From positions 90,001 through 122,000 of the forward strand of contig JAZDEL010000010.1 of the NCBI GenBank assembly GCA_043808785.1: a stretch of DNA of 32,000 nucleotides, in the 5' to 3' direction. Below are positions 1-15,064 of this stretch, one piece after another. Origin of the DNA: Candidatus Iainarchaeum sp. (GTDB lineage Archaea; Iainarchaeota; Iainarchaeia; Iainarchaeales; JAZDEL01). Below the pieces are notes generated by a model that searched no databases, was not told the DNA's origin, and saw only the letters and a program-made list of their open reading frames with translations. How positions within the stretch are numbered: position 1 is the stretch's first letter; each line of letters starts with the position of its first letter. Both the position numbers and the translations under genes were made by a program.

Positions 1-1563
1 CAATACTATGAATTAGACGATAATATTGGAAATCTCGAATTTGACTTGGAACAAGTACTTGAGAGAGTGCATTCCAAGGGCTACAAAGTGGTTTTTGTAA
101 TTGATGAGTTAGACAAAATAGATAACCAAAATGTCACAATAGGTGCAATAAAAAGTTTCAAAAATTTATTCAATCTCTCATCCGCAATTTTTGTCCTGAT
201 TGCAGGGCGGGACACGTTTGATAGGATTCAAGCTGGTAAAGGGCCAAGGACCCCAGACTACACACTTTTTACGCACAAGATATTTTTAAAGCGGCCAACA
301 TTCTGGGATATTGAGAGTTTTGTGGATGAGATAATAGCAAAGCCAGACATGGCAAAGCTCAAACAAAACGACAAATATAAAGAATTCAGAAATTTTCTTT
401 CTTTTGAAGCAAAAACTGACTTTTTTGAGTTGTATGCCATACTCCGAGACTACATCAAATTTGATAGGAGCGGCTCTACCCTTGCAATACCTAGATTAAC
501 GACTAAGGAATTGACCAAAGCAAGGCTGCAAAAAGCAATGGGTCAAGTATTTGGTCGGAGCGGGTGGGGCGTGCCCTCCAAGTGGCATATGGATGAAGAA
601 ATACTAACAAGCCTATATCTCTTAATAGATGGGCTTGCTGAGAAGGATAAAGGTGACGAGTTTGAAGATGACTTTGGAAATCATCCTACGGATGGTGAAA
701 ATGCACCCATAAAGCGGGATTTGTGCAAATACTTAGAGCGGCTCGGTGCCATCGAAAAAATCAGTGTTCGGGAAGAGGTAGTTGGCAATAAACCTAAAAA
801 AATTACGAAGTATCGATGGATGGGCTTCTGCAGTAAGGTTCCTTCTGAGATACGGGAAATAATGATGGAGCATGAGATGACATTTATCGATAGGGCTAGT
901 TCGCTCAAAAAAATGGTTGTGGAGATAGGTAACCTTTACAAAGTAGCTAACTCTGAAAGAACTTATTCAATGAACGGCTTTCAAAGCAACTCTCGAGAGA
1001 TACTGACGCTTGTTCAAAAACTGACGAATAGAAACTTGGTGCCAATCTTTGATCAGATAACGCCTATAGAGCAAGACCTTAATACTAAATTTCCAAAATT
1101 GCATAAACGTGAGGAAGTAGAGCAACACATAAAGAATCTTGAGGGGGAGATTAATGCCCTTAAAGAGTACTCCCGAATCGCTCTAGAAAATATTATTAAA
1201 GAAAAAGTCGCAGATATGGAATCTTCCCAACTCCAGACAAATGTGGGATTGTTTAGTGCCATTCAAGGATTAAGAAATAACGTAGTACATGGGGGCATAT
1301 TGCACTCAGTAATTTTCAAAAAAGATCTTTCTAAACAATTATTAATGTCTGTAAATATGTCCTCTGATCTAATAAACCAGAATAAACAATTAATACGCCA
1401 AAATTCAAAAACATTAAAAATCGTAAATATTCAAACGGACCCCTCTTTTGACTATAAAGATATGAAACATTTGGGAGGTGGTTTTTCAAGCGTAAAAGTG
1501 ACAGATAATTTTGAAGAACTTGGGCGGGTAATCAAGAAACTAATGCACTGGTTTTTATCATAA
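1..1563 (+). CDS. P-loop NTPase (AAA+/STAND-like), truncated at the 5' end by the window edge, with a long helical C-terminal region
   Basis: Frame 1 is open from base 1 (QYYELDDNIGNLEFD precedes the TTG at 46), so the start is upstream. Walker-B-like KVVFVIDELDK is followed by AIFVLIAGRD (sensor-1-like). Walker A would lie off-window. Family not recognised more precisely. Confidence 0.55.
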   Translation, partial: QYYELDDNIGNLEFDLEQVLERVHSKGYKVVFVIDELDKIDNQNVTIGAIKSFKNLFNLSSAIFVLIAGRDTFDRIQAGKGPRTPDYTLFTHKIFLKRPTFWDIESFVDEIIAKPDMAKLKQNDKYKEFRNFLSFEAKTDFFELYAILRDYIKFDRSGSTLAIPRLTTKELTKARLQKAMGQVFGRSGWGVPSKWHMDEEILTSLYLLIDGLAEKDKGDEFEDDFGNHPTDGENAPIKRDLCKYLERLGAIEKISVREEVVGNKPKKITKYRWMGFCSKVPSEIREIMMEHEMTFIDRASSLKKMVVEIGNLYKVANSERTYSMNGFQSNSREILTLVQKLTNRNLVPIFDQITPIEQDLNTKFPKLHKREEVEQHIKNLEGEINALKEYSRIALENIIKEKVADMESSQLQTNVGLFSAIQGLRNNVVHGGILHSVIFKKDLSKQLLMSVNMSSDLINQNKQLIRQNSKTLKIVNIQTDPSFDYKDMKHLGGGFSSVKVTDNFEELGRVIKKLMHWFLS

Positions 1564-1575
1564 TTGCTTTAAAAA

Positions 1576-2292
1576 TTGCGCAGGATCGTAGGATTGATTT
1601 ATGAATCAGATAAAACACTTTCAGGAGTGTCGGCTGCCGTGAACCGCAACAATATCGCAGATTGGATAATCGTAATTTTCACATTTTTGGCACTCATAAC
1701 TTTAGTTTATCTCGGAGAAGCAGGAGAACTTGACGTTTTCGCAGCGCTGGTCATGCTGGCGAGTGTGATTTTCAGCATTTTGCTCTCCGCAATCGCCGCA
1801 GGCGGTGCCCTCTGGCTGATTTACCTTATTTTTAAAGAATTGGAAAACGTATCTATAGAAAAACCGCCACAAATCTGGAAGGCTTTTTTCAGATTAATTA
1901 GGCCTAATGCTAATGTTGAGGGCCAATTGCCCCTAACGGATTTGCTTATTGCCCTTATTTTTTTGTATGTGCTCGCAATGGCGCTTACCGAAATTTTCTT
2001 CTTGGCTCAATTTAAGGAAGGTGGCATGATTGCATATTTTGCCCCGGTGTTTGTCGCGGGATACATCCTGCTGTACAGGTTTTTCGTAAAACGCGGAAAT
2101 AAGGAACTGAGCGACACAATGCTTGGTGTTTTGCTTGTGGCAATCGTCCTGGCTTTGGCGCAGGGTATGGCTTCAAACGGCTTTCAAAATATAACAATGC
2201 CTCGGCTTGAACGGCAGTTTGTCGCGATTGCGGCGGCAGGGATTGACTTTTTGGCACTGGAAGTTGGGAAGAAGTGGTGGTTCAAAAAATAG
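1576..2292 (+). CDS. Multi-pass membrane protein, unknown function
   Basis: Starts 12 nt after the NTPase stop (TTG at 1576; in-frame GTG alternatives a few codons downstream). Several hydrophobic helices, e.g. WIIVIFTFLALITLVYL, ALVMLASVIFSILLSAIAAGGALWLIYLIF, LLIALIFLYVLAMALTEIFFLA, APVFVAGYILLYRFF, LGVLLVAIVLALAQG. Confidence 0.5.
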   Translation: MRRIVGLIYESDKTLSGVSAAVNRNNIADWIIVIFTFLALITLVYLGEAGELDVFAALVMLASVIFSILLSAIAAGGALWLIYLIFKELENVSIEKPPQIWKAFFRLIRPNANVEGQLPLTDLLIALIFLYVLAMALTEIFFLAQFKEGGMIAYFAPVFVAGYILLYRFFVKRGNKELSDTMLGVLLVAIVLALAQGMASNGFQNITMPRLERQFVAIAAAGIDFLALEVGKKWWFKK

Positions 2293-2295
2293 GGC

Positions 2296-2315
2296 TTATT
2301 TCTCTGAGAAAATAA
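2296..2315. terminator. Imperfect AT-rich hairpin between convergent genes (possible bidirectional terminator)
   Basis: ttatttctc-t-gagaaaataa lies between the stop at 2290-2292 (+) and the stop at 2318-2320 (-). T-tracts flank it on both strands. Confidence 0.3.
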
Positions 2316-2317
2316 AA

Positions 2318-3823
2318 CTATTTTTTGCTTTTCTTGCGTTGTTTCTTCCTGGATTTTTTTACAATATCCGTTTTCAAACGATTCATGTTATTGGCCAATA
2401 GATCTATTCTTTCAACTAGTGCTGATGAATCTTTTTTTGTTTTTCCATAAAAATGCCAAGATGCAATAATGCCCGTAGCGCCAATAACTATGGTGGCTAA
2501 AAGTGCCCACCTGAATGTTTCTTTGTCGCTTTCCCAAGTTTTTTCCCAATTCTCCCAATTTTTCTCCCACGACAGCCTGCCTTGCCTATATATGAATTCA
2601 TCTAATTTTTCTTTGTATTTGGCTTTTGAATCATCGACACTTTTGACTACGGCTTCAGCCATATAGAGGTCCGCTTTCATTAGTGTTTGAACATTGCTAT
2701 CGTTGCCATATGCTTTGGGGAAACTTGGGTAGATTGAACTGAAAATAAATTCCTGCGAGTTTGCCGGAGTGTGGTAAAGTTTAACCAATCTGTTGAACTC
2801 ATCTTGCAGAATATTCATATTTTGTATTTGTTCTTCACAAAAAGATTTTACAGTTCCAAAAAATGGAAATGCTTCCTTATCTAAATAGTCAATCGCAGTA
2901 TCATAATACTCCAAACTGTTTGCATCTAGCCAGAAAGTCCTGTTTGAGAGGTTTACACCCACAACACCGCGTTCCTCTTTCCTGCCGCATTCAAGCGCAT
3001 ACTCCTGATTTTTCCAATAATAAAGTGTTGGCACATTAGCTAATAGTGCAGTTTTACTCAAATCAAGTAAGAACCCATCAATTTCCCCAAACTTCAGCAA
3101 CCTATCCTGCCCGCTCTTTATCAGAACGAACTCATTGTACTCGGGGCCGCTTTTATAAATAACTGCGAATTCTTTTTTGCCGTTTGCCAGTCGGCAAAAG
3201 CCTCGCATGTATGGTCTCTCCCCAAAATTCTGCACTAACAACTTTTGCGGTAACTCTTCCCATTCGGAAGATGCGCAACCAGTTTCGAACAAATCAGACC
3301 AATTGATTAAATTCACTACTCTTGCTGAACCCGACTGCGCTCTGACTACTAAATTTCCCATATTCCGTATGTTTAAAAATTCATCCGAAATATTTCTCCA
3401 CTTGTTGTCATTCTGCCTAAAATAATTTTCCCAAAGAAACTCGGCCACATCCGATGCTTCATTTGCTTTAACGCAATCAATATTTTCTGCCAGGTAAGAA
3501 TTGATTGAATATGTGCCATTATAAAAATTGATGAAATTATCTTGGGAATAATATAAGTCGCCGTTATTCTCTAAAACTGGCAACCCCTGTTTTCCCAGTT
3601 CGCGTTTTATTTGCACAATATTTTCATCAAATGCCAATGGGAGAAAATTGCCTCTCAAGTCAATTTCACTGAAACTGGATGCGTTTGAGGCAAGCGGGTT
3701 CCCAGAATAGTCCCCTAGCCAAGTGTCAACATATAAATATTCAACAGAACAAGCTGCAGCACAAATGCTTTGCATTATTATCCCCTCGACAACCAATATT
3801 AAAAGTGTGCGGGGTATTTTCAT
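2318..3823 (-). CDS. Secreted protein with a C-terminal membrane anchor, unknown family
   Basis: N-terminal signal-like RTLLILVVEGIIMQSICAAAC. C-terminal TM WALLATIVIGATGIIASWHF followed by a Lys/Arg-rich tail. Trp-rich WEKNWENWEKTWES sits just before the TM. AT-rich codon usage. Confidence 0.55.
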   Translation of the reverse strand: MKIPRTLLILVVEGIIMQSICAAACSVEYLYVDTWLGDYSGNPLASNASSFSEIDLRGNFLPLAFDENIVQIKRELGKQGLPVLENNGDLYYSQDNFINFYNGTYSINSYLAENIDCVKANEASDVAEFLWENYFRQNDNKWRNISDEFLNIRNMGNLVVRAQSGSARVVNLINWSDLFETGCASSEWEELPQKLLVQNFGERPYMRGFCRLANGKKEFAVIYKSGPEYNEFVLIKSGQDRLLKFGEIDGFLLDLSKTALLANVPTLYYWKNQEYALECGRKEERGVVGVNLSNRTFWLDANSLEYYDTAIDYLDKEAFPFFGTVKSFCEEQIQNMNILQDEFNRLVKLYHTPANSQEFIFSSIYPSFPKAYGNDSNVQTLMKADLYMAEAVVKSVDDSKAKYKEKLDEFIYRQGRLSWEKNWENWEKTWESDKETFRWALLATIVIGATGIIASWHFYGKTKKDSSALVERIDLLANNMNRLKTDIVKKSRKKQRKKSKK

Positions 3824-3891
3824 TAAAGATCACTCTTCAAATTTTTTATCGCAACAGACATAGTTGCACAAAAACTAACTTCGGAAATGTC

Positions 3892-4977
3892 CTAAACGGA
3901 TTCTGGGGGCGAGTTTGGTAAAGAGGATTTCTCAACTGGGTGGCTGTCTTTTTTTCGCCTCACTGTAGCAGCAGGAAACGCATTTTTTATCGAATTTTGC
4001 ATACTCCTAACCATGAGTCCTTGATTAATCTCTTGTGAAAAATTTGGAATTTGTGTCATTGCCTTGGTGGCTCGACTAATCTCTTCGGATAAGTTTGGCA
4101 CTTCTGCCACCATCTTAACCGCTCTGCGTACTTCCTCTGAAAGATTCGATAGTTGTGTTGAAACATTAAGTGCGTGAAGAATGGCGGGGGACACAAATAG
4201 TAATTCTTTTTCAAATTCCAACTCTTGGGCTATAATCTTATCTGAAGATTCTATTTCGGGAATGTTATGCTTTGTGAAACTGCCTAAATGCATATACGGG
4301 ATGATTTTCGATTTTTTATTATTAGTCCATTCGTCTATTAAGAAGGGCGCTATATTATTTTCGTCTACTTTTGATCTAAAATCCCGATCCAATCCAACAA
4401 AATGGAGAGGCTCGCCTTCTGGAAAATTATGGAGCAACGTTTCCCAAATGACCGCGTCACCATATGAATCCTTCTTTCCGGGGGGGTTGCCTAAGCTAGA
4501 CCGCTCACTTGCCTTGTTAACTACCTCAGGGGTATGCGAAACAAGTTTTGATGAAGAAAAAAGATCTTCAATTAATTTATCTGCCAAAAATGACCTTTTT
4601 GTAATCTTAGACTTGAAGATTTCTTGAAGTTTATCGGCAAACGAATTCGCCTCCCATATTTTTTGTTTAGATATTTTAAGGCAGCCCTCAATCTCAGCCA
4701 GCTCCTTACTTGATTCAGGTAAGTCTGGCATTTTGCAAGTTTTAAGGCTTGAAAGAATACTCTCGTTTTTTGAGATTAATTTATCAATCTTTGAATATTC
4801 ATCGTAAAGTCGTTTCTCTCGATTCCTTAAAAACTCATTCCTAACTTGTTCGGGAAGCCACAAAGTTATCTTGTTATTTTTTATGGATTTGACAAGTTTT
4901 TTTAAATCTTCAAGTTCCTCTTCTTGCAATGCATATAGTGCTAAATAGGTATTAGTATCTATAAAAAGATGATTCAT
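3892..4977 (-). CDS. PIN-like nuclease-domain protein (resembles the DUF4935-type PIN-like fold) with a long C-terminal extension
   Basis: N-terminus MNHLFIDTNTYLALY...ITLWLPEQVRNEF fits the PIN-like acidic-residue pattern (hhDTN ... E). The start ATG overlaps the stop of the upstream RHH gene (ATGA). The C-terminus carries three 17-aa tandem repeats. Confidence 0.5.
   Translation of the reverse strand: MNHLFIDTNTYLALYALQEEELEDLKKLVKSIKNNKITLWLPEQVRNEFLRNREKRLYDEYSKIDKLISKNESILSSLKTCKMPDLPESSKELAEIEGCLKISKQKIWEANSFADKLQEIFKSKITKRSFLADKLIEDLFSSSKLVSHTPEVVNKASERSSLGNPPGKKDSYGDAVIWETLLHNFPEGEPLHFVGLDRDFRSKVDENNIAPFLIDEWTNNKKSKIIPYMHLGSFTKHNIPEIESSDKIIAQELEFEKELLFVSPAILHALNVSTQLSNLSEEVRRAVKMVAEVPNLSEEISRATKAMTQIPNFSQEINQGLMVRSMQNSIKNAFPAATVRRKKDSHPVEKSSLPNSPPESV
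3997..4149 (-). repeat. Three in-frame 51-nt tandem repeats (17-aa units) in the PIN-like protein C-terminus
   Basis: Units 4099-4149, 4048-4098 and 3997-4047 encode LSNLSEEVRRAVKMVAEV / PNLSEEISRATKAMTQI / PNFSQEINQGLMVRSMQ. Confidence 0.6.
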
Positions 4978-5102
4978 TTCAACCCCCTCTTCACCAGCCT
5001 CACAACCGCCTCATTATTATTCCTCAGCCCCTGGTCTATCCTGTACTTCTGGACCTCTTTCCAGGTTTCCTCGTCGATGTCCAGAATCAGTTTCTTTGCC
5101 AT
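4974..5102 (-). CDS. Ribbon-helix-helix (CopG/Arc-like) small DNA-binding protein, antitoxin-like
   Basis: 42-aa ORF below the track cutoff: MAKKLILDIDEETWKEVQKYRIDQGLRNNNEAVVRLVKRGLK. It has a beta-strand then two helices, typical of RHH. Its TGA overlaps the ATG of the PIN-like gene. Confidence 0.5.
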   Translation of the reverse strand: MAKKLILDIDEETWKEVQKYRIDQGLRNNNEAVVRLVKRGLK

Positions 5103-5187
5103 TAACCCACGTTAATAGATGTTAACGGAAACTGTTAAAAGCATGTAGGTATTAATAGTTATTAATGACTGTTAATTTGGTGATAAA

Positions 5188-5352
5188 TTGAATCCCGAAG
5201 TTGCGCGCTTCCTGCTTGGCGCAATCTGCTGGCTGCCTGTGGGCTTCTGCATAGCGCTCGCACGATGGGGGCGTATCGAGGAGGCTTATGGGCTGGCGAA
5301 GTATTCCATGGCGTTCCTCGCGGGGGCGAGTTTGGCCGGCTGGCTCGGGTAA
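5188..5352 (+). CDS. Hydrophobic 54-aa mini-protein, paralogue 1 of 4
   Basis: TTG start with ggtga 5 nt upstream and an in-frame TAA at 5173. Product: LNPEVARFLLGAICWLPVGFCIALARWGRIEEAYGLAKYSMAFLAGASLAGWLG. Below the 60-aa track cutoff; found through nucleotide repeats. Confidence 0.5.
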   Translation: MNPEVARFLLGAICWLPVGFCIALARWGRIEEAYGLAKYSMAFLAGASLAGWLG

Positions 5353-5498
5353 GCAATTAATCAAATGAAAAACGATTTAACGGCAAATGCCTCCTTGTTT
5401 CTTGATTATGGCACTTATTTAACCTCGGATTGCAACAACAATAATTAAATATTATGAAGGGGGCTTATATAATCGGATAAACAAATCATGGTGGGGAA

Positions 5499-5720
5499 AT
5501 GAATTCTAAAATGGAGATACGCATCTGGGAAGGCTCGCCGCTTGTGGGGATGAGCGTGGAAAAACTGGACAAAAAATTCGGCGTCAATGTCCTGAAAGTC
5601 GCAAGGGGTGTTGAAGCCGCAAACCCGAAGGGCAATCTGAAAATAGAGGCCGCGGATTACATTACTTATGTCGGCGACCCTGCCAACTGCCTGAAAGTGC
5701 TGGAGAAATCCGTAAAATAG
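5499..5720 (+). CDS. Stand-alone TrkA-C (RCK C-terminal) domain protein
   Basis: The 73-aa product shows a TrkA-C-like pattern: EIRIWEGSPLVGMSVEKLDKKFGVNVLKVARG...NLKIEAADYITYVGD. SD-like ggtgggg lies upstream of the ATG. Confidence 0.55.
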   Translation: MNSKMEIRIWEGSPLVGMSVEKLDKKFGVNVLKVARGVEAANPKGNLKIEAADYITYVGDPANCLKVLEKSVK

Positions 5721-5753
5721 CGAATATACTGGCGGCTGCGTTATAGTGATACT

Positions 5754-6620
5754 TTGAAACTAGGGCTTATTGTCAATTGTGTAGGGTACGACCGGAATTG
5801 CGTGCCAATAAATGTCCATCTGCTTAAACATATCTCCCCCAGGTTGGGGCAGTTAGGGATAGAATATAGCCTTGTGATGCCTTCGAGCGATTGGATTGGC
5901 ACGAAGCTGACCAAACACACCGATTTTCTCCCTTCGCAAGACCCTGAGGAAGTCGCAAGAATCCTGCGTTCTGCAAATAACAAGGGCGTTGTTGTGAGGG
6001 GTTGCATTGCGGAGTTCGCAAAAGACGGGCTGGATTGCGTACTGCATATAGACGGGAGCGGCAAGTTCGATTTGGGCGACATAGTAAGGGTTATTGAGAT
6101 AATACTTGACGCTTCGGTAGATGCGATTTTAACAAAGAGGGACAAAAGCGGGATGAACAAATTCAGGACCCTGCTGGAAAAACTGGAAATGGAACTTGTT
6201 TCGAGAAAGTTTAATAATGCTCTTATTGAAGACGGGCAATGCGGCTGTTGGTGCATAAGATTGGGCAATAAAGATTGCGACTTACAAAAGGAGTTAACTG
6301 CTACCGGATACGAGATAGAGCTGGACATACTCATAAGCCAGCTCAAATATGGGCGAAATATAGTGTGGCTGCCTATAAAAATAACCGACACGAAAAAATC
6401 AAAATATACGTTCGGCGCCAACATTTTAAAGATGGAGTGGCTATCGGGAAAACTTGGGCTAAGGAAAAGCGAGGCATTATCGTTCATGCGGGAGTTTCAG
6501 TCAAAGAACGGCGGAGAGATACGCGATGCAGAAGATGAATCGGAAAAGCTTGGCGATGCCGAAAATAAATTTGACAACTATGTGCAAAAAATAGAAGAGA
6601 GCACTAAGTTTATCGGGTAA
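5754..6620 (+). CDS. Glycosyltransferase family 2-like protein (tentative)
   Basis: LHIDGSGKFDLGDIVRVIEIILDASVDAILTKR resembles the GT2 DxD-region/(D)GSG block. IEDGQCGCWCIR and GYEIELDILISQLKYGRNIVWLPIK resemble the GT2 C-terminal half. TTG start. The antisense ORF 5741..6487 is Ser/Leu low-complexity and was rejected. Confidence 0.4.
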   Translation: MKLGLIVNCVGYDRNCVPINVHLLKHISPRLGQLGIEYSLVMPSSDWIGTKLTKHTDFLPSQDPEEVARILRSANNKGVVVRGCIAEFAKDGLDCVLHIDGSGKFDLGDIVRVIEIILDASVDAILTKRDKSGMNKFRTLLEKLEMELVSRKFNNALIEDGQCGCWCIRLGNKDCDLQKELTATGYEIELDILISQLKYGRNIVWLPIKITDTKKSKYTFGANILKMEWLSGKLGLRKSEALSFMREFQSKNGGEIRDAEDESEKLGDAENKFDNYVQKIEESTKFIG

Positions 6621-6658
6621 AACTAAGGATGCAAAAGTTTGCAAAGAATAGAGGGGCG

Positions 6659-6823
6659 ATGGACCCCTCCGTCTCCCGCTTCATCTTTGGGGCAATCTGC
6701 TGGCTGCCTGTGGGCTTCTCTGTTGCGCTGGCGCGCTGGGGGCGTGTGGAGGAGGCTTATGAACTGGCGAAGTATTCCATGGCGTTCCTCGCGGGGGCGA
6801 GTATTGCGGGGTGGCTGGAGTAA
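6659..6823 (+). CDS. Hydrophobic 54-aa mini-protein, paralogue 2 of 4
   Basis: ATG at 6659 preceded by gagggg. Product: MDPSVSRFIFGAICWLPVGFSVALARWGRVEEAYELAKYSMAFLAGASIAGWLE. The track ORF starts at 6629, but homology to the other copies begins at this ATG. Confidence 0.6.
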   Translation: MDPSVSRFIFGAICWLPVGFSVALARWGRVEEAYELAKYSMAFLAGASIAGWLE

Positions 6824-6940
6824 AATTTCCGAAAACGAAACTGTTAAATATGTGAAAGCCGTTAATCTAAAACCAGCCAAGGGTGTATACGTATATATAC
6901 CCGTAGGCAGGGGAATTATTTTAGTAAAAGGGTGGATGAA

Positions 6941-7105
6941 ATGGCAAAAGTTATAAGGGCAACCCCGACGCTTGTCGGGGCGGAAGCCATAAGTTTCCTT
7001 GCGCGCATGAAGAGGAACGATTCAGCCAGGCCCAACAAGGCGGACAGGCGCCTGCTGGAAGCTGTCAGGGAGCACCAAAAGTTCTTTTCCTCTCCGATTC
7101 AATAG
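6941..7105 (+). CDS. Small hypothetical protein (54 aa), family not recognised
   Basis: ATG ORF below the track cutoff: MAKVIRATPTLVGAEAISFLARMKRNDSARPNKADRRLLEAVREHQKFFSSPIQ. Its 3' end overlaps the 3' end of the convergent GNAT gene by 41 nt. Confidence 0.3.
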   Translation: MAKVIRATPTLVGAEAISFLARMKRNDSARPNKADRRLLEAVREHQKFFSSPIQ

Positions 7106-7712
7106 ATTCGTTCAGAATCGGCTTCAGGTCCTTGTACATCGGGATGTATGCGGCATCGGGCTTGCCCCTTTCCTTTATGGTCAAAAACCCGTTTTTGTTG
7201 TAGAAGTGTATGGGCCTTTTCGGTTCCGGAAGGTTCCTGTCGTTTTTCGCCTCGAGGGTGAGGAACCTGCAGCCCGCATATTTGTTGAGTTCGAGCACCG
7301 TGCTTATCGCAAATGCGACCATTCTCGTGCCTATCTTGCGGCCCGCATATTTTGATGAAACCCCCATCCTGCAGATTTTCAGCGCGGGAAGCGCCTTATA
7401 GTCGAGGCCGATTGTTTTCATTTCCTCCTTTTTCCTGCCGGAAAGGTGTATGGAATCATTGCACAGGGAAATGAAGCCCAGCAGTTCCCTCGCGCTTTTG
7501 GAAACCCATAAGTATGTTAAGTTTACGGATTCCTTCTGCTGCCTCAGCGCATCGTCCCTCAGGAAATTGTTAAGGTCCTTTGTGCCGCAGTCGAAATCCT
7601 TTGCAAAGTCCAGGGTTACCTCGGAAAGTTTCATAATCTCAATGTCCGAAACGGGAAACTCCTGTTTTTTGTCTTCGGGCATATGGCGGATTACCTCTTG
7701 CCTGTTTAACAA
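7065..7712 (-). CDS. GNAT-family N-acetyltransferase, similar in layout to TacT/KacT-type toxins
   Basis: FDCGTKDLNNFLRDDALRQQKE N-terminal block. The acetyl-CoA motif region is ALKICRMGVSSKYAGRKIGTRMV (Q/RxxGxG/A-like), followed by FLTLEAKND...FYNKNGF. Confidence 0.7.
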   Translation of the reverse strand: MLNRQEVIRHMPEDKKQEFPVSDIEIMKLSEVTLDFAKDFDCGTKDLNNFLRDDALRQQKESVNLTYLWVSKSARELLGFISLCNDSIHLSGRKKEEMKTIGLDYKALPALKICRMGVSSKYAGRKIGTRMVAFAISTVLELNKYAGCRFLTLEAKNDRNLPEPKRPIHFYNKNGFLTIKERGKPDAAYIPMYKDLKPILNESIESERKRTFGAP

Positions 7713-7777
7713 ATATGAATATTCGGCATAGCTTTTAGAAACCTATTGGTCGGAGGCAATCCGGAAAGCATGCCCAT

Positions 7778-7948
7778 GTGCATACGGGCCCCTCCGTCTC
7801 CAGCTTCATCTTCGGCGCAATCTGCTGGCTCCCTGTAGGCTTCTCTGTGGCGCTGGCGAGATGGGGGTGCATAGAGGAGGCTTATGTGCTGGCGAAGTAT
7901 TCTATGGCGTTTCTGGCGGGGGCGAGCGTGGCGTGCTGGCTGGGGTGA
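7778..7948 (+). CDS. Hydrophobic mini-protein, paralogue 3 of 4
   Basis: GTG at 7778 is the only start after the in-frame TAG at 7736. Product: VHTGPSVSSFIFGAICWLPVGFSVALARWGCIEEAYVLAKYSMAFLAGASVACWLG. No obvious SD. Confidence 0.45.
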   Translation: MHTGPSVSSFIFGAICWLPVGFSVALARWGCIEEAYVLAKYSMAFLAGASVACWLG

Positions 7949-7965
7949 AAAATCCGCACGCGGGG

Positions 7966-8940
7966 TTACCCGACTTTTTTCAGAAGCCCGCCAAGAATGG
8001 CATCCCTGTCCTCCTTAAGTATCGCGCTTATTTCTTCCGCGCGCTTTTCGAGGCACATGTAAACGAACTTCGAGAATTTTGAATATTCCCCGCTTAACTG
8101 CACCCTTTCAAGAAGCGCTATGTAGCCCTGCCTGTTTTCAAGGTTGATTATCGCGCGCGGATATCCTGCGTTCCCAAGCATTACCTGCAGGAGTTCCCTG
8201 CCCGTTCTCCCGTTGCCGTCGTTGAAAGGGTGAATCTCCTCGAAGCGCGCGTGGAACTCCGCGGCAAGCTCGACAGGGTGCGTTTTGCCCGTGTTTTCCC
8301 CCAGCCATCCGAGGAGGGCGGCAAGCCTTTCCCCCACCTTGTCCGCGGGCGGGGGCCTTACCTTTGACCCCGTAATGAACATCGGGCCTTGCCTGTACGT
8401 GCCCGGGGTTTTGTCGTCAAAGCCCTTCAGTATCGCGGCGTTTATTTTTTTGATGCCCCTTTCGGTTATTTTTTTCATGTTCTTCGACGTTTCGGCGGCA
8501 AGTTTCATGTTTTCGATTTCCCTTATCTCCTCGATGCGCTTTCCCGCAACCGAGGCGCCCTTCTGAATTACAATAGATGCCTCCTGCAGGCTCAGCGAGT
8601 TTCCCTCTACCGAAGCGCTTCCCTGCGCATACCTGAGGAACTCGTCCTCCCTGAACGAGTCGAAGCCCTGCGGGAAAAATTCCTTCAGGAGCGCGTAATC
8701 CGACTTCAGCCTTTCCAGCGTGAGCTTTTCGGCTTTTGACAAAACACCGCCTCTGAACTCCTTTTCGGAATTCCTGAAATTCCCGACCACGGTCTCACGG
8801 ACAAGGCTGTCGAAGGCTTCCCCGATTCTGCCTGCGGCCTGCCCTTTCCTGCCGAGGGAAAAGCTAAGGCGCTTTCCGCCCGCCCTGTCCTCCAGGTAAT
8901 AGTAGTGCTTTCCGCCAATCTTCCGTTTAGATATGAACAT
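7966..8940 (-). CDS. Fic-domain protein (AMPylase-type), with an N-terminal inhibitory-helix-like motif
   Basis: Canonical Fic motif HPFNDGNGRTGR. SASVEGN matches the (S/T)xxxE(G/N) auto-inhibition motif. Start placed at Met16 of the track ORF (MFISKRKIGGKHYYYLE), which has a TATA-like tttttatac about 25-30 nt upstream. The 15 extra N-terminal residues in the track look spurious. Confidence 0.85.
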   Translation of the reverse strand: MFISKRKIGGKHYYYLEDRAGGKRLSFSLGRKGQAAGRIGEAFDSLVRETVVGNFRNSEKEFRGGVLSKAEKLTLERLKSDYALLKEFFPQGFDSFREDEFLRYAQGSASVEGNSLSLQEASIVIQKGASVAGKRIEEIREIENMKLAAETSKNMKKITERGIKKINAAILKGFDDKTPGTYRQGPMFITGSKVRPPPADKVGERLAALLGWLGENTGKTHPVELAAEFHARFEEIHPFNDGNGRTGRELLQVMLGNAGYPRAIINLENRQGYIALLERVQLSGEYSKFSKFVYMCLEKRAEEISAILKEDRDAILGGLLKKVG

Positions 8941-9036
8941 AAGACTAATTAACACCAAAAAGTATAAAAATGTATTATTTTGCATAAATTGGTGTTAAGA
9001 GGTTTTGACAGGGGAAACGCCAAATAGGATGGCGCA

Positions 9037-9201
9037 GTGGACCCCTCCGTCTCCCGCCTCATCTTCGGGGCAATCTGCTGGCTCCCCCTCGGCTTCTGCG
9101 TGGCGCTCGCGCGCCGGGGTTGCATCGGGGAGGCGTATGGGCTGGCAAAGTATGTGATTGCATTCCTGGCGGGAGCGAGCGTGGCGGGTTGGCTGGGTTA
9201 A
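9037..9201 (+). CDS. Hydrophobic 54-aa mini-protein, paralogue 4 of 4
   Basis: GTG at 9037 follows the in-frame TAG at 9025. Product: VDPSVSRLIFGAICWLPLGFCVALARRGCIGEAYGLAKYVIAFLAGASVAGWLG. Confidence 0.5.
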   Translation: MDPSVSRLIFGAICWLPLGFCVALARRGCIGEAYGLAKYVIAFLAGASVAGWLG

Positions 9202-9340
9202 AAAAACTTGCAGCGGAAATGAGCCCTACAGAGGTTTATAAACGAAAAAACCGTTATTAATTCAGGCGCGCAGTGCGCCTCTGCCTTATTCAAAAAATGC
9301 GGGCACGCATGAATTCGGCGCGCCGCGGCCCGCAGGGAGC

Positions 9341-10189
9341 ATGATTGGAATGGAAGGGAAAAATGCGCTTGTGGTTTTTCAGGACAGGAAGATAAGGAGG
9401 GCTTGGCATAAAGAGGAGTGGTTCTTTTCGGTTGTGGACGTCATTGAGGCGCTCACTGACAGCCCAACGCCGAGGCAGTATTGGGGCAAGGTAAAAGACA
9501 GGGAATTCGCGGGGCTTGAGTTGTCCCCAATTTGGGTACAACTGAAACTCCCCTCTGCGGACGGCAAATATTACGATACGGACTGCGCAAATACCGAGGG
9601 CATGTTCAGGATAATCCAGTCAATTCCGTCCCCCAAAGCGGAGCCATTCAAGCTCTGGCTGGCAAAGGTCGGCTATGAAAGGGTTCAGGAAATAGAGAAC
9701 CCCGAGCTTGCGCAGGCGAGGATGAAGGAGCTTTACAGGGCAAAGGGATACTCGGATGAATGGATTGAGAAGCGTGTGAGGGGCATTGCAGTAAGGCAGG
9801 AACTTACGGATGAGTGGAAAAATCGCGGCGTGCTTTACAGGGAATACGGCATACTGACGAATGAAATAAGCAAGGCCACCTTCGGGAAAACTGTGGATGA
9901 GTACAGGGATTTCAAGGGGCTTAAACGGGAACCGCTCAGGGACCACATGGCGGATTTGGAGCTTATTTTCACGATGCTCGGCGAGGCTTCCACAACAAAA
10001 ATAGCGCGCGGCAGGAATGCGCGCGGCTTTCCAGAGAACAAAACCGCGGCGGAAAAGGGCGGGAGAATAGCGGGAGATGCGAGGAAAAAACTTGAGATTG
10101 AATCCGGCGAAGAGGTTATGAATTCGGAGAATTACCTTAAGGAGCCTGAAGCCGTGAAAAGAAGGAGGCTGGCTGCGGGGAAGGGATGA
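9341..10189 (+). CDS. Bro-N domain protein / DNA-damage-inducible protein D-like
   Basis: N-terminus ALVVFQDRKIRRAWHKEEWFFSVVDVIEALTDSPTPRQYW fits the Bro-N pattern. It is followed by IQSIPSPKAEPFKLWLAKVGYERVQEIENPE, typical of DinD-like proteins. Confidence 0.6.
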   Translation: MIGMEGKNALVVFQDRKIRRAWHKEEWFFSVVDVIEALTDSPTPRQYWGKVKDREFAGLELSPIWVQLKLPSADGKYYDTDCANTEGMFRIIQSIPSPKAEPFKLWLAKVGYERVQEIENPELAQARMKELYRAKGYSDEWIEKRVRGIAVRQELTDEWKNRGVLYREYGILTNEISKATFGKTVDEYRDFKGLKREPLRDHMADLELIFTMLGEASTTKIARGRNARGFPENKTAAEKGGRIAGDARKKLEIESGEEVMNSENYLKEPEAVKRRRLAAGKG

Positions 10190-10200
10190 TGCTGCAGAAA

Positions 10201-11031
10201 TCAATGCAAAGAAATTTCCTTCCCCGATTTTTCCCGCGATGCTTTTCCGAAGGAGGGCATTTTCTTCAATTGCTCCCTTGTGAAAACTGGCCCGTCTTTG
10301 CACACGAGCATCCCGTCAATCTCGCATGCGCCGCACACCCCGAAGCCGCATCGGAAATATCGCTCCAAACTGAATTCATAATTCACGCCCGCCCTCTCGC
10401 ACACGTCCTGCAGCCCCTTCATCATTTTTTCGGGGCCGCAGGAGTAAGCCATATCATACGCCCCTCCCTTTCCTGCGCGCAGCATCTTCTCCGCGAGCGC
10501 TGTGGGAAAGCCCCTCTCCCCCGCGCTCCCGTCATCGCTGGTTATGTATAAGTTTGTGTGCTTGCCCAGCAAACCCTCGCAAAAAATTTCGTTTTTTGTT
10601 TTAACCCCGAAAATGAAGTCGGGTTTTTTGTTTTTCCCGCGCGCTGAGAAATGCTGCGCAAGCATCATCAGGGAAGCGACGCCGCACCCGCCGGCAACGA
10701 GGAGGGGTTTCTTCACGCCTTTTGTTTCGAACCCTTTCCCGTACGGCCCGCGCAAACCAACCTTATCGCCTTCCCGCAAGCCAAAAAGCGCATTTGTGAA
10801 TTTTCCCTTCCTCCTCACGAGGATTGCGTTCTCCCTCCCCGAAAGGAAAACGCTGTAGGGCTTCTCGTCCAAACCCGGGAGCCAGAGCATAACAAACTGC
10901 CCCGGCGCGCACTCGATTTTTTTGTCAATGTAAATTATGCGTACGTTTTTGTTTTCATCAGTTACGCGCGTAACCGCGGCCATTTCAGGAACATCCGCAA
11001 CATGCCGTTCCCCCGTGCAGGAAGCGCTCAT
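10201..11031 (-). CDS. pyrK: Dihydroorotate dehydrogenase (class 1B) electron-transfer subunit
   Basis: FAD/NAD-binding ferredoxin-reductase-like fold (GQFVMLWLPGLDEKPYS, LLVAGGCGVASL). C-terminal 2Fe-2S Cys cluster CGFGVCGACEIDGMLVCKDGPVF. ATGA overlap with the pyrD stop. Confidence 0.85.
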   Translation of the reverse strand: MSASCTGERHVADVPEMAAVTRVTDENKNVRIIYIDKKIECAPGQFVMLWLPGLDEKPYSVFLSGRENAILVRRKGKFTNALFGLREGDKVGLRGPYGKGFETKGVKKPLLVAGGCGVASLMMLAQHFSARGKNKKPDFIFGVKTKNEIFCEGLLGKHTNLYITSDDGSAGERGFPTALAEKMLRAGKGGAYDMAYSCGPEKMMKGLQDVCERAGVNYEFSLERYFRCGFGVCGACEIDGMLVCKDGPVFTREQLKKMPSFGKASREKSGKEISLH

Positions 11032-11942
11032 TCATGCGCCACCCCCCTCAGTTCCTTTATGTTGCGGACACCGTTCTTTTCCATCCATTCCGACATCTCT
11101 GCACATACCTTGCCGAAAATAGAGGGGCCGCTGCCGTAAACCGCAGTCCCTACCCCGACAGCAGCTGCGCCTGCCTCTATCATCTCAATAGCATCCCTGC
11201 CGCTGCTCACGCCCCCCATTCCGAGTATCGGTATTTCCACTTCCTCATACAACTGGTAAACGCACCTGAGCGCAAGCGGCTTTATTGCAGCGCCGCTCAT
11301 TCCCCCGAATTTGTTGGAAAGCACCGGCTTCCTCGCCTCCGCATTTATCAGCATCCCCGTCAGCGTGTTTATCGCGCACAGCGCGTCCGCGCCCGCATCC
11401 TCGCACGCTTTCCCCACTTCGACGATTTTGTATGTATTTGGCGTGAGCTTGGGCATCACGGGAATTTTCCCGCAAACACCCTTCACAGCGCGCGTAACCT
11501 CCGCGGCAGGCTCCGGCTCCAGGCCGAACATCTGCCCGTGCTTTGCCGAGTTCGGGCATGAAATATTTATCTCAATTATCGCCGGCTTTCGCTCCGCAAC
11601 CGCCCCCGCAACCTCGGCAAACTCCTCCACGGTCCCGCCGTAGATTGAGGCAATCAGCGGCGCCTTAATCCCGCGCAGTCCCCCCCATTCCTTGCCGAGG
11701 TTTTTGTAGCCGGGCGTCGGCAGGCCGACACAGTTAAGCGCCCCGTGCTCCCAGCGCACGATGCTCGGGTTTGCATGCCCCTCCCGCTCCCTCGGGCCTA
11801 TGGACTTCATTGTCACGGCGCCGGCCCCTGCTTCCGCTGCGCGCTTAAGCAGCGCCGCGCTTGTGCCGAATATTCCAGACGGGAGCACGGTGGGGTTTTT
11901 CATCTTCGCGCCGCAGAACTCCGTCGTGAGATTCATCGCCAT
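11028..11942 (-). CDS. pyrD: Dihydroorotate dehydrogenase catalytic subunit (class 1B)
   Basis: TIM-barrel DHODH motifs: IEINISCPNS, NTLTGM, GGMSGAAIKP, PILGMGGVSSGRDAIEMI. Confidence 0.9.
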   Translation of the reverse strand: MAMNLTTEFCGAKMKNPTVLPSGIFGTSAALLKRAAEAGAGAVTMKSIGPREREGHANPSIVRWEHGALNCVGLPTPGYKNLGKEWGGLRGIKAPLIASIYGGTVEEFAEVAGAVAERKPAIIEINISCPNSAKHGQMFGLEPEPAAEVTRAVKGVCGKIPVMPKLTPNTYKIVEVGKACEDAGADALCAINTLTGMLINAEARKPVLSNKFGGMSGAAIKPLALRCVYQLYEEVEIPILGMGGVSSGRDAIEMIEAGAAAVGVGTAVYGSGPSIFGKVCAEMSEWMEKNGVRNIKELRGVAHE

Positions 11943-12038
11943 CGCCCTTCCCGCTTCCGCCCGTGGTTCGTGGGCAAACCCGTGCCAGCTCCTTTTTTCC
12001 CTTCGGCCCGCAATTCGCAGCAGGGCCCGCCCGCAGCC

Positions 12039-13471
<1,433 letters not shown>

Positions 13472-13545
13472 TTAACCCTTTATATTATTGGGGTTCAGGA
13501 TATTTAAATGTGGCGGTTGCGCGCGCGGAATAGGTGCGGCAGGCT

Positions 13546-13695
13546 CGCAGCAGGAACAAAAACCAAACCCGCGGGTTTGCCGGGTTTGCGCGCCGCGAAC
13601 TGCAAACCAACCCGGCGGTTTGCGGGGTTTTCGTGCCGCGGGCCGCAGGCCGAACCCCGCGGAAGCGCGGGCTTTTGCGCCCGTTCCTGCCGCAG
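13546..13695. other. GC-rich, palindrome-dense intergenic element between divergent pyrB and ftsZ
   Basis: Perfect 16-nt palindrome CAAACCCGCGGGTTTG at 13564-13579. GGTTTGC heptamers at 13574, 13583 and 13617, plus an inverted GCAAACC at 13602. Flanking complementary arms gcaggaac (13550-13557) and gttcctgc (13683-13690). Confidence 0.3.
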
Positions 13696-13750
13696 GATTA
13701 ACCACTCGCAAGTAACAATTTTTGCCCGCAAGGCGCGCGAACATAGATAT

Positions 13751-13790
13751 GCTTTTAAACCATTTTTATGGGGTAATAGGTATATTGCTT
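13751..13790 (+). promoter_or_regulatory. AT-rich TATA-box-like region upstream of ftsZ
   Basis: gcttttaaaccatttttatggggtaataggtatatt is the only AT-rich patch between the GC-rich element and the proposed ftsZ start. Confidence 0.3.
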
Positions 13791-13834
13791 TATTCGTTGT
13801 TTCGGCTTTTGCCGGGTGTGCAGGGGGTTTGGGT

Positions 13835-15064
13835 GTGAGGACTGTTATTGACAAGGCTTTGAAAAGCATAAGGGCGGATGCTGCCACAGGAAAGGTCCAG
13901 GTAAGGGCTGTGGGGATAGACGCGGAAATTTCCGAGCGCAGGCCCGTGGAAAAGGCGCCAAAGGCATCCAAAAAGCGCGCTGCACAGGACGATAAAGCCA
14001 AGCGCAAGGGCTCCATAATACACTCGGACCAGGAACTCACCGAACTGCTTAAAACCGCGCGCGCAAAGATACGCGTTATTGGTGTAGGAGGGGGCGGGGG
14101 AAACACAATACAGCGCATGAGCGAAGTCGGAATCATAGGGGCGGAAACCTTTGCTGTCAACACGGATGCGCAGGACCTCCTTACTGTTTGCGCGGACCGC
14201 AAGATTCTTGTGGGAAAGAAACTCACCCGCGGCCTCGGCTCAGGGTCAAACCCGCAGATAGGGGAGGCAGCTGCGCACGAGAGCATCGAGGAACTCAACG
14301 AGCTTCTCGCCGACTCGGACCTTGTTTTTATCACGTGCGGAATGGGCGGAGGCACGGGCACTGGCGGAAGCCCCGTAATTGCCGCAATTACAAAGGACCT
14401 GAAGGCGCTTACAATAGGCGTTGTCACGCTCCCCTTCACTGTTGAGGGGAAGAAGCGCATGGAGAACGCGCTCGACGGGCTTTCAAAACTGAGGCAGCAC
14501 GCGGATACGGTTATTGTGATACCTAACGACAAAATCCTCGAGATTGCGCCCGACCTGCCCGTAAATGCCGCGTTCAAGGTCGCGGATGAAGTGCTGACAA
14601 ACGCGGTAAAGGGCATAACCGAAATGGTCACAAAGCCCGGGCTCATAAACCTCGACTTTGCGGACCTCAGGACAATACTTGAAAAGGGCGGGGCGGCAAT
14701 GATAGGCCTCGGGGAGAGCAGCACGGAGAAGGCATCCGACAGCCGCGCCCTGGAAGCGGTTGAGAATGCGCTAACATCCCCCCTGCTCGATGTCGACATT
14801 TCATGCGCATCCCGTGCATTGGTAAACGTTGTCGGGGGTTCCGACATGACACTGCGCGAAGCGGAGATGATTGTTGAAGCTGTAAGCGCGAAAATCCACT
14901 CCGATGCGCACATAATCTGGGGCGCAATGATAGACGAGAACATCCCGCGCAACCGCATACAGGCGATGATTGTGATTGCGGGCGGAAAGTTCCCGTACCT
15001 TGAGAAAAACGCCTCGGGCAAGTTCGAAGGGTCCATAGATTTGGGGATTAGGTTCACTGACTGA
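13835..15064 (+). CDS. ftsZ: Cell division GTPase FtsZ
   Basis: IRVIGVGGGGGN and the tubulin signature GMGGGTGTGGSPVIA. Start placed at GTG 13835 (TTG 13829 is an alternative), giving VRTVIDKALKSI. The track start at 13508 would add an Arg/Cys-rich extension across the promoter and palindrome region. Confidence 0.88.
   Translation: MRTVIDKALKSIRADAATGKVQVRAVGIDAEISERRPVEKAPKASKKRAAQDDKAKRKGSIIHSDQELTELLKTARAKIRVIGVGGGGGNTIQRMSEVGIIGAETFAVNTDAQDLLTVCADRKILVGKKLTRGLGSGSNPQIGEAAAHESIEELNELLADSDLVFITCGMGGGTGTGGSPVIAAITKDLKALTIGVVTLPFTVEGKKRMENALDGLSKLRQHADTVIVIPNDKILEIAPDLPVNAAFKVADEVLTNAVKGITEMVTKPGLINLDFADLRTILEKGGAAMIGLGESSTEKASDSRALEAVENALTSPLLDVDISCASRALVNVVGGSDMTLREAEMIVEAVSAKIHSDAHIIWGAMIDENIPRNRIQAMIVIAGGKFPYLEKNASGKFEGSIDLGIRFTD

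Follow-up and report, generated by a model that had tools for sequence, protein, structure and literature searches.

A small, probably membrane, protein gene repeated among defence- and toxin-type genes beside the pyr cluster of a Diapherotrites archaeon, as a possible marker of gene accretion

Tandem genomic-island arrays are bounded by repeated att fragments of their target gene, as with tRNA-targeting integrative elements and tycheposons. In tandem type I toxin loci, such as ldr/rdl of E. coli, promoter, leader and antisense RNA are all part of what is repeated, and in the orphan toxin/immunity cassette arrays of the Rhs, contact-dependent inhibition (CDI) and Maf systems each conserved segment is a piece of a large toxin gene joined to a variable tip. 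Integron cassette arrays that have no integrase, the CALINs, include archaeal ones (PMC9668308). The locus described here lies in a 32,000 nt window, meaning the whole stretch of DNA that was analysed, from contig JAZDEL010000010.1 (positions 90,001 to 122,000) of Candidatus Iainarchaeum sp., and holds four copies of a mini-gene, each encoding a small hydrophobic protein, with defence- and toxin-type genes between them and the pyr cluster to one side. Those defining features of integron attC sites and att-fragment arrays that were tested are absent from the array, and with type I toxins the family appears to share only size and hydrophobicity.

The reading preferred here, to which a probability of roughly 0.4 is given, is that the mini-gene is a real, lineage-restricted gene for a small, probably membrane, protein and that its copies mark the accretion of genes beside the pyr genes, probably as recombination substrates. 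The family has expanded to at least five copies in the window genome, three of which are inside a lineage-specific block of defence- and toxin-type genes, and the array would have arisen through recombination at the mini-gene, by Campbell-type or other repeat-mediated insertion and duplication. Every gain of cargo would leave another copy in the same orientation, and the copies would both record past insertions and supply the homology for the next one.

There is a single direct-repeat family according to the repeat finder (n = 4, 171 nt, at 5190, 6661, 7786 and 9039), the copies of which are 77–84% identical pairwise and spaced 1471, 1125 and 1253 nt apart. In all cases the window copy is a complete open reading frame (ORF), with in-frame stops 3–17 codons upstream. 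The original prediction, made from the letters of this DNA, had placed four complete plus-strand ORFs here, and its coordinates agree with the repeat finder and the ORF list. Its remark that homology stops near the ORF ends agrees with the multiple alignment, in which similarity is confined to the region from approximately the start codon to a few nucleotides past the stop and the flanks are unrelated, and its hand count for copies 2 and 3 (26 differences in 165 nt; 19 differing sense codons, 10 of them synonymous) was exact on recount. The degenerate pattern ICWLP-N54-LAKY matches precisely the four sites in the window and none in 100 shuffles, and a six-frame search with a hidden Markov model (HMM) found no fifth copy within the 32 kb. 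Upstream of copy 1 there is a Shine-Dalgarno-like GGTGA motif, 4–9 nt before the start, and the GTG start of copy 3 is two codons 5' of an ACG standing at the aligned start position. The repeat finder reported no terminal inverted repeats at the copies and no inverted repeats inside them.

The repeat is a protein-coding gene under purifying selection. The variable alignment columns at codon positions 1, 2 and 3 number 17, 8 and 33 (chi-square p = 2.5e-4), and the pairwise Nei-Gojobori ratio of nonsynonymous to synonymous substitution (dN/dS) among the four window copies is 0.15–0.27, with dS of 0.45–1.13; between the window copies and a copy on a related contig (L003 copy B) it is 0.11–0.19. 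Selection on the peptide, which the original prediction had argued for, is thus upheld, the ratios among the window copies being far from the value of about 1 that would speak against it. When the six frames are compared, only plus frame 0 is both stop-free and low in pN/pS (0.30), the other frame with low pN/pS holding four internal stops.

It might otherwise be supposed that the repeated sequence acts as non-coding DNA or RNA (an attC-like site, a miniature transposable element, a small RNA, or an att site derived from a tRNA or a gene fragment) and that the ORF in it is incidental, given that these are GC-rich direct repeats between cassette-like genes and that the antisense frames are partly open. 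This is largely refuted and can be given hardly any weight. There is no tRNA at the repeat in a tRNA scan and there are zero matches in a window-wide Rfam scan, the single-stranded DNA fold is no better than that of shuffles (-25.1 kcal/mol against a mean of -28.2, z +1.04), and covariation is approximately nil on both strands (terms -0.12 and +0.44). Of the attC core sites R'' (RYYYAAC) and R' (GTTRRRY), both are never found together on a single strand of any copy, and neither is present in copies 3 and 4. Codon-phased substitution, together with the lack of a fold, Rfam or attC signal, identifies the repeat as a gene, as opposed to an attC site, small RNA or miniature transposable element; the low replacement in the plus frame only and the absence of terminal inverted repeats point the same way. 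That the copies might be 3' fragments of one longer gene flanking an integrase-bearing element was also considered and rejected, because the window copies are complete ORFs and no integrase was found in the window ORFs scanned. The sole copy resembling a 3' fragment is L003 copy A.

Table 1. Positions of the mini-gene copies, their neighbours and the related copies; coordinates are those of the window unless a contig is named.
Feature	Position	Strand	Description	Identification
Mini-gene copy 1	5188..5352	+	54 aa, TTG start	V1676_07020
Mini-gene copy 2	6659..6823	+	54 aa, ATG start; opens the lineage-specific block	P0001, V1676_07035
Mini-gene copy 3	7778..7948	+	56 aa, GTG start, homology from 7784	P0004, V1676_07050
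Mini-gene copy 4	9037..9201	+	54 aa, GTG start	Missing among protein-database matches
PIN_12 protein with overlapping upstream ORF	3892..5102	-	361 aa, upstream ORF 42 aa; low-GC cargo, GC content at third codon positions (GC3) 0.35; head-to-head with copy 1	Pfam
TrkA_C protein	5499-5720	+	73 aa; conserved native neighbour, not cargo	Pfam
288-aa protein	5754-6620	+	Conserved native neighbour, not cargo	
57-aa ORF	6932-7105	+		No family match
GNAT acetyltransferase	7065-7712	-	215 aa	Pfam
Fic protein	7966..8985	-	339 aa; internal SASVEG	SoFic/PDC-S04-like
Bro-N protein	9341..10189	+	282 aa	Full-length match to defence candidate PDC-S13
pyrK and pyrD	10201..11942	-	Start of the conserved core anchoring the island	
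Lineage-specific block	6621..10200		3.6 kb; copies 2-4, 57-aa ORF, GNAT, Fic, Bro-N	
L003 copy A	12153-12317		Directly upstream of TrkA_C	Six-frame HMM search
L003 copy B	13520-13678		Further out than copy A	Six-frame HMM search
L005 decayed copy (pseudogene)	5094-5198		Upstream of TrkA_C	In-frame stop and 15-nt insertion
L002 mini-gene	10001-10159	+	Lone plus-strand gene between two restriction-modification systems	P0006

The mini-protein family is undescribed in the libraries searched, and the original prediction had not recognised it either. Its intact members are of 52–57 aa and are invariant at ICWLP, L24, R26, G28, LAKY, FL, G46, A50 and L53. AlphaFold2, run on the six-sequence family alignment, predicts a helical hairpin (mean predicted local distance difference test score, pLDDT, 90.5) with helices at residues 3–14, 16–26 and 30–53, the first helix being kinked in the model at the invariant Pro17, and the second having a charged start (EEAYxLAKY) and an Ala/Gly-rich end. 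In each intact member there is a 19-residue Kyte-Doolittle window of 1.72–2.15 within the first helix, which would be hydrophobic enough to span a membrane, and the protein is probably a membrane protein. Our own guess is that it works alone, and not as a partner of the products of neighbouring genes. Foldseek searches against the PDB and viral models returned generic helical hairpins only (E > 0.5), and there was no meaningful match in PADLOC, NCBIfam or PHROGs. Five of the six members match Pfam DUF6000, but below threshold (12.7 and 17.3 bits, where shown, against a gathering cut-off of 25 bits; E from 0.0038 upward) and over only positions 81–119 of the 185 in the profile, and this candidate was rejected.

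The family is rare. Among 5.8 billion proteins searched there are four matches, all from one metagenome-assembled genome (MAG) labelled Candidatus Diapherotrites archaeon: V1676_07020, V1676_07035 and V1676_07050, on the 233.5-kb contig of the window, and V1676_00325 (P0002), on another contig. With the four copies of the window, the last of these brings the family in this genome to at least five, copy 4 being apparently unannotated since it is not among the protein matches. A profile search of 1.84 billion representatives added one true relative, P0006 (V1494_05240, 52 aa, 38% identical, E = 2.4e-5), from a different Diapherotrites MAG (L002). In total, the family is present in four genomes of the Diapherotrites, a DPANN lineage, with five copies in the window MAG, two copies and a pseudogene spread over two sister genomes, and a single copy in the fourth. 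The lone match in a scan of GTDB genomes (L001) is spurious, being inside NuoG. There were none in JGI metagenomes, either by peptide patterns or by the degenerate ICWLP-N54-LAKY pattern, and none in IMG/VR by the latter. Copy 4, both L003 copies and the L005 copy are uncalled as genes in the records used, which would mean that searches of protein databases undercount the family.

Relatives of the locus were traced through pyrK homologues to three contigs of public sequencing runs, with pyrK identities of 83% (L003), 71% (L004) and 66% (L005). In both L003 and L005 the 288-aa gene comes directly after pyrK, then TrkA_C and then the mini-gene, and the 288-aa/TrkA_C pair has 86% and 79% nucleotide identity, respectively, to that of the window in blastn. 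Window regions 5220–6602 and 10220–11936 are contiguous in both relatives, also by blastn, and 6621–10200 is therefore a lineage-specific 3.6-kb block. Copy 1 is collinear with L003 12285–10902 and L005 5165–3816, its 3' flank included, and is by this synteny the ancestral copy, edging the variable region beside TrkA_C, the 288-aa gene and pyrK. Being upstream of TrkA_C, L003 copy A is orthologous to copy 1; a DUF3800 gene lies between it and copy B. Relative to pyrK, both L003 copies are in one and the same orientation, and likewise all four window copies.

On L007 and L008, which are Diapherotrites contigs of more distant relationship, pyrK is followed by pyrC, pyrE and pyrF, and there is no mini-gene at the pyrK loci of either. 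That the pyr cluster (window 10201–13471) ends after pyrK here, and continues in these two contigs, places the island at an old synteny break. The single mini-gene of L002 sits in a low-GC island which also has HD, PemK and Fic genes. In the spacer between it and a divergent 55-aa ORF (L002 9928–10000), TTCTATATAGAATA is present twice and may be an operator; the 55-aa ORF is AbrB-like by eye and has no Pfam match. A 282-aa protein adjoining Fic in L002 was compared with the Bro-N protein of the window and is unrelated.

The orthologues of copy 1 have not been kept intact. In L003 copy A both Trp codons are gone and the N-terminal hydrophobic segment is replaced by MFFAALQKRKI, with the Kyte-Doolittle value down to 1.26 and dN/dS up to 0.26–0.40. 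As judged from the sequence, this copy is crippled and the L005 copy is a pseudogene, while the adjacent TrkA_C and 288-aa genes are conserved.

L003 copy A also bears a possible sign of recombination. Against copy 1, its identity is 93% in the 3' flank and 76% over nt 34–165, while over nt 1–33 just 7 of 33 positions match (Fisher p = 1e-8), so that the homology breaks inside the ORF, directly 5' of the best-conserved DNA block of the family, GCAATCTGCTGGCT. Over the first 33 nt, copy 1 is 52–61% identical to copies 2–4, which are themselves 82–91% identical there, at least as close as in the remainder of the gene; the contrast between these 33 nt and the rest has a Fisher p of 0.0016 for copies 1 and 2 and of 0.06 for copies 2 and 4. 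The informative sites split three ways (6, 3 and 2) and are phylogenetically incompatible. An intragenic break, mosaic identity and conflicting sites suggest recombination within the mini-gene, with very few sequences behind them.

These signs bear also on the possibility of an ordinary expansion of paralogues, in which the gene was duplicated locally within an insertion-prone region, unrelated genes landed there by chance, and the mini-gene had no mechanistic role in the gain of cargo. This is doubtful, and yet the likeliest of the alternatives. It would fit with all of the window copies being intact and selected as proteins, with the lack of any recombinase or site structure, and with the pyrK side being a synteny break in this lineage, given that the pyr operon continues in L007 and L008. 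It does not readily account for the homology break in L003 copy A or the mosaic of the first 33 nt, nor for the strict alternation of copies and cargo, with one or two genes to each interval, in two genomes.

It also leaves the base composition of the mini-gene unexplained. In the window the GC3 of the mini-gene is 0.73–0.80, against 0.63–0.76 for the core and 0.35–0.67 for the cargo, and that of L003 copy B is 0.72, against 0.59–0.65 for the core. The L002 mini-gene has a GC3 of 0.72 (0.73, or 38/52, without the stop codon) in a host with a core of 0.50 and island cargo of 0.30–0.42 (binomial p = 0.001). Family-wide, therefore, GC3 is 0.72–0.80 regardless of that of the host (0.50–0.76) or the cargo (0.30–0.67), and since the L002 protein is just 38% identical to the window copies, recent import is not the source of the high value. 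GC-biased conversion at a recombination-prone repeat, constraint at the level of DNA, or codon selection would each fit.

The same values would be accommodated by a stronger form of the accretion reading. In it, a platform for cassette capture would be anchored where pyrK ends (3'), with the protein-coding mini-gene, and not a non-coding palindrome or a tRNA fragment, as its repeated unit of attachment or homology, and a recombinase or the homologous recombination of the host would add defence and toxin genes to it unit by unit. Frequent recombination, through GC-biased conversion, or a constraint on the DNA would then explain the GC3 of approximately 0.72–0.80, also in a host with core genes at 0.50. 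In this strong form the proposal is thought unlikely.

Several observations weigh against accretion by recombination at the mini-gene. No recombinase is present in the window ORFs scanned or at the related loci; the original prediction that there is no integrase or transposase holds for every window ORF scanned. For CRISPR features, the window-wide Rfam scan is empty and a repeat search of 4000–11000 gave no spaced short repeats, although no dedicated search for CRISPR arrays was made. The 3.6-kb block is downstream of the 288-aa gene, where the relatives have no mini-gene, so that plain insertion into copy 1 would be insufficient without an extra step, and at the junctions of the block there is neither a target duplication nor a retained spacer. 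Only L003 copy A has a clean intragenic break, and the incompatible sites could be homoplasy. With dS between copies of approximately 0.4–1.1 the events would be old, and 165 nt is too short for resolving recombination tracts; the comparison, moreover, covers four genomes. The first of two hypotheses in the original prediction, that the copies delimit exchangeable cargo, stands in part. It is in keeping with the variation of cargo among relatives, the lineage-specific three-copy block and the intragenic break, but the conservation is at the level of the protein and not of a DNA site, and there is no recombinase or attC-like structure.

Another alternative is a selfish small membrane toxin, similar to those of type I systems. 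Each copy would be restrained by an antisense RNA or by the gene facing it head-to-head, and the copies would persist by addiction, stabilising the island. The protein is small and hydrophobic, and the family is multi-copy, narrow, usually unannotated, located in mobile or defence islands and lost by decay in some lineages; in addition, spacers of 34–85 nt separate five of the seven intact copies from a toxin or regulator gene placed head-to-head with them. Against this, the copies have no conserved flank in which an antisense promoter or structured leader might lie. There is no signal of RNA structure on either strand and no match to a known toxin family, and such a toxin is considered improbable, to about the same degree as the capture platform.

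Pfam confirms the original identification of the neighbouring PIN (PIN_12), TrkA_C, GNAT, Fic and Bro-N proteins. Two other labels did not survive: 'GT2-like' for the 288-aa protein is based on a sub-threshold AglJ match alone (E = 0.0025, 17 bits against a cut-off of 325), and the 42-aa ORF, taken to be RHH, has no Pfam match. Copy 3 is head-to-head with the GNAT gene and tail-to-tail with that for Fic (17-nt gap), and copy 4 is head-to-head with Fic across a 51-nt spacer. Fic matches PADLOC SoFic and PDC-S04 (E = 3e-32), and no viral relatives of it were found. In its translation the SASVEG stretch is upstream of HPFNDGNGRTGR and is presumably the intramolecular inhibitory motif known for Fic proteins. 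The Bro-N protein matches PDC-S13 over its full length with E = 7e-116 and has relatives, 38–57% identical, in 37 IMG/VR contigs, which suggests that it is widely mobile cargo.

The second hypothesis of the original prediction made the mini-protein a partner common to each neighbouring enzyme; in this reading it would serve the transferases and nucleases beside it as an anchor, substrate, antitoxin or effector. In the window it does adjoin Fic, GNAT, PIN and Bro-N; in L003 its neighbours are DUF3800 and a 327-aa protein that is unannotated, and in L002 they are restriction-modification genes. The short head-to-head spacers could allow co-regulation. These neighbours, however, are unrelated, have no family, orientation or spacing in common, and are mostly on the opposite strand. 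Beside the conserved TrkA_C/288-aa pair the mini-gene has decayed in L005 and L003, no mini-gene is near the Bro-N homologues in any of the 37 viral contigs, and the defence-candidate models that Fic and Bro-N match have no such component. The motif [S/T]xxxE[G/N] is the inhibitory helix motif of class I Fic antitoxins (VbhA-like); it is in no mini-protein sequence of the family alignment, and Fic has its own internal SASVEG. A shared partner is accordingly disfavoured, and is less probable than a toxin.

There are further features of these genes and of their surroundings. The 57-aa ORF and the GNAT gene are convergent with a 41-nt overlap, and one gene end may be misassigned. The 85-nt spacer at 5103–5187, between the 42-aa/PIN operon and copy 1, is 28% GC and carries several TGTTAA(C/A/T) motifs, possibly operator sites. 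Window 1–5000 is approximately 38–40% GC, against 55–60% for the core, and its three large ORFs (505, 238 and 501 aa) match no family beyond a weak Csx1-like hit (E = 0.004). The gene for the 327-aa protein of L003 (13697–14680) ends 18 nt before copy B; it has no significant family match, and LRNTLLH in the protein fits, in our own reading, an Rx4H HEPN-like motif.

On the conserved side, TrkA_C has a dS of 0.11 between window 5499–5720 and L003 11785–12006, while that of the adjacent 288-aa gene is 0.68; recent exchange, conversion or synonymous constraint are possible causes of the contrast. The FtsZ at window 13508–15064 is 518 aa, with the tubulin domain from residue 187, against 371–409 aa in relatives, and either has a long N-terminal extension or has had its start wrongly called. 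At window 17501–24037 there is a 2178-aa protein with DUF2341 and a laminin-G-like lectin domain, and with weak beta-lactamase, apiosidase and heparinase-C matches. It is inserted beside the L11 gene, where L003 has a PIN gene and an MmeI-type restriction-modification gene.

DPANN archaea have small genomes and are host-dependent, and to our knowledge the ways in which they gain and shuffle defence and toxin genes are poorly understood. If the accretion reading is true, cargo delimited by a coding mini-gene would amount to a cassette architecture distinct from integrons and from tRNA-targeted islands, and the mini-gene would provide a simple sequence handle by which variable islands may be located in these lineages. 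Gene callers miss such mini-genes: one window copy in four and each of the three sister-genome copies lack annotation. Were the accretion reading wrong, there would remain a new and very narrow family of small, probably membrane, proteins.

In layout the array resembles the CALINs, in which, as in the window, there is a same-orientation repeat for every one or two genes, in units of approximately 1.1–1.5 kb with toxin- or defence-type cargo, and the array abuts a fixed chromosomal point with no integrase nearby, in the window as far as its ORFs were scanned. The attC site of a CALIN is an imperfect palindrome of 57–141 nt, whereas the repeat of the window is a selected coding gene of 165 nt, and unlike the CALINs the window array has no hairpin, no R'/R'' core sites and a mixed orientation of cargo. 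In att-fragment arrays, as here, direct repeats of a resident gene part successive cargo at one hotspot, and L003 copy A has the appearance of a 3' remnant fused to foreign 5' sequence. The window copies differ in being full-length, intact and selected, the target would be a protein mini-gene, and no integrase was found in the window ORFs scanned.

The ldr/rdl loci resemble the window family in being multi-copy genes for hydrophobic peptides of less than 60 aa that are lineage-restricted and often unannotated. In the window, however, homology ends at the ORF ends, and the copies are separated by unrelated genes. In the Rhs, CDI and Maf arrays, as in the window, conserved coding segments are reiterated between variable cargo, an arrangement which is thought to permit the exchange of cassettes by homologous recombination. 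What is reiterated in those arrays is part of a toxin gene, whereas in the window the unit is an independent and complete mini-gene, and the cargo genes are separate from it.

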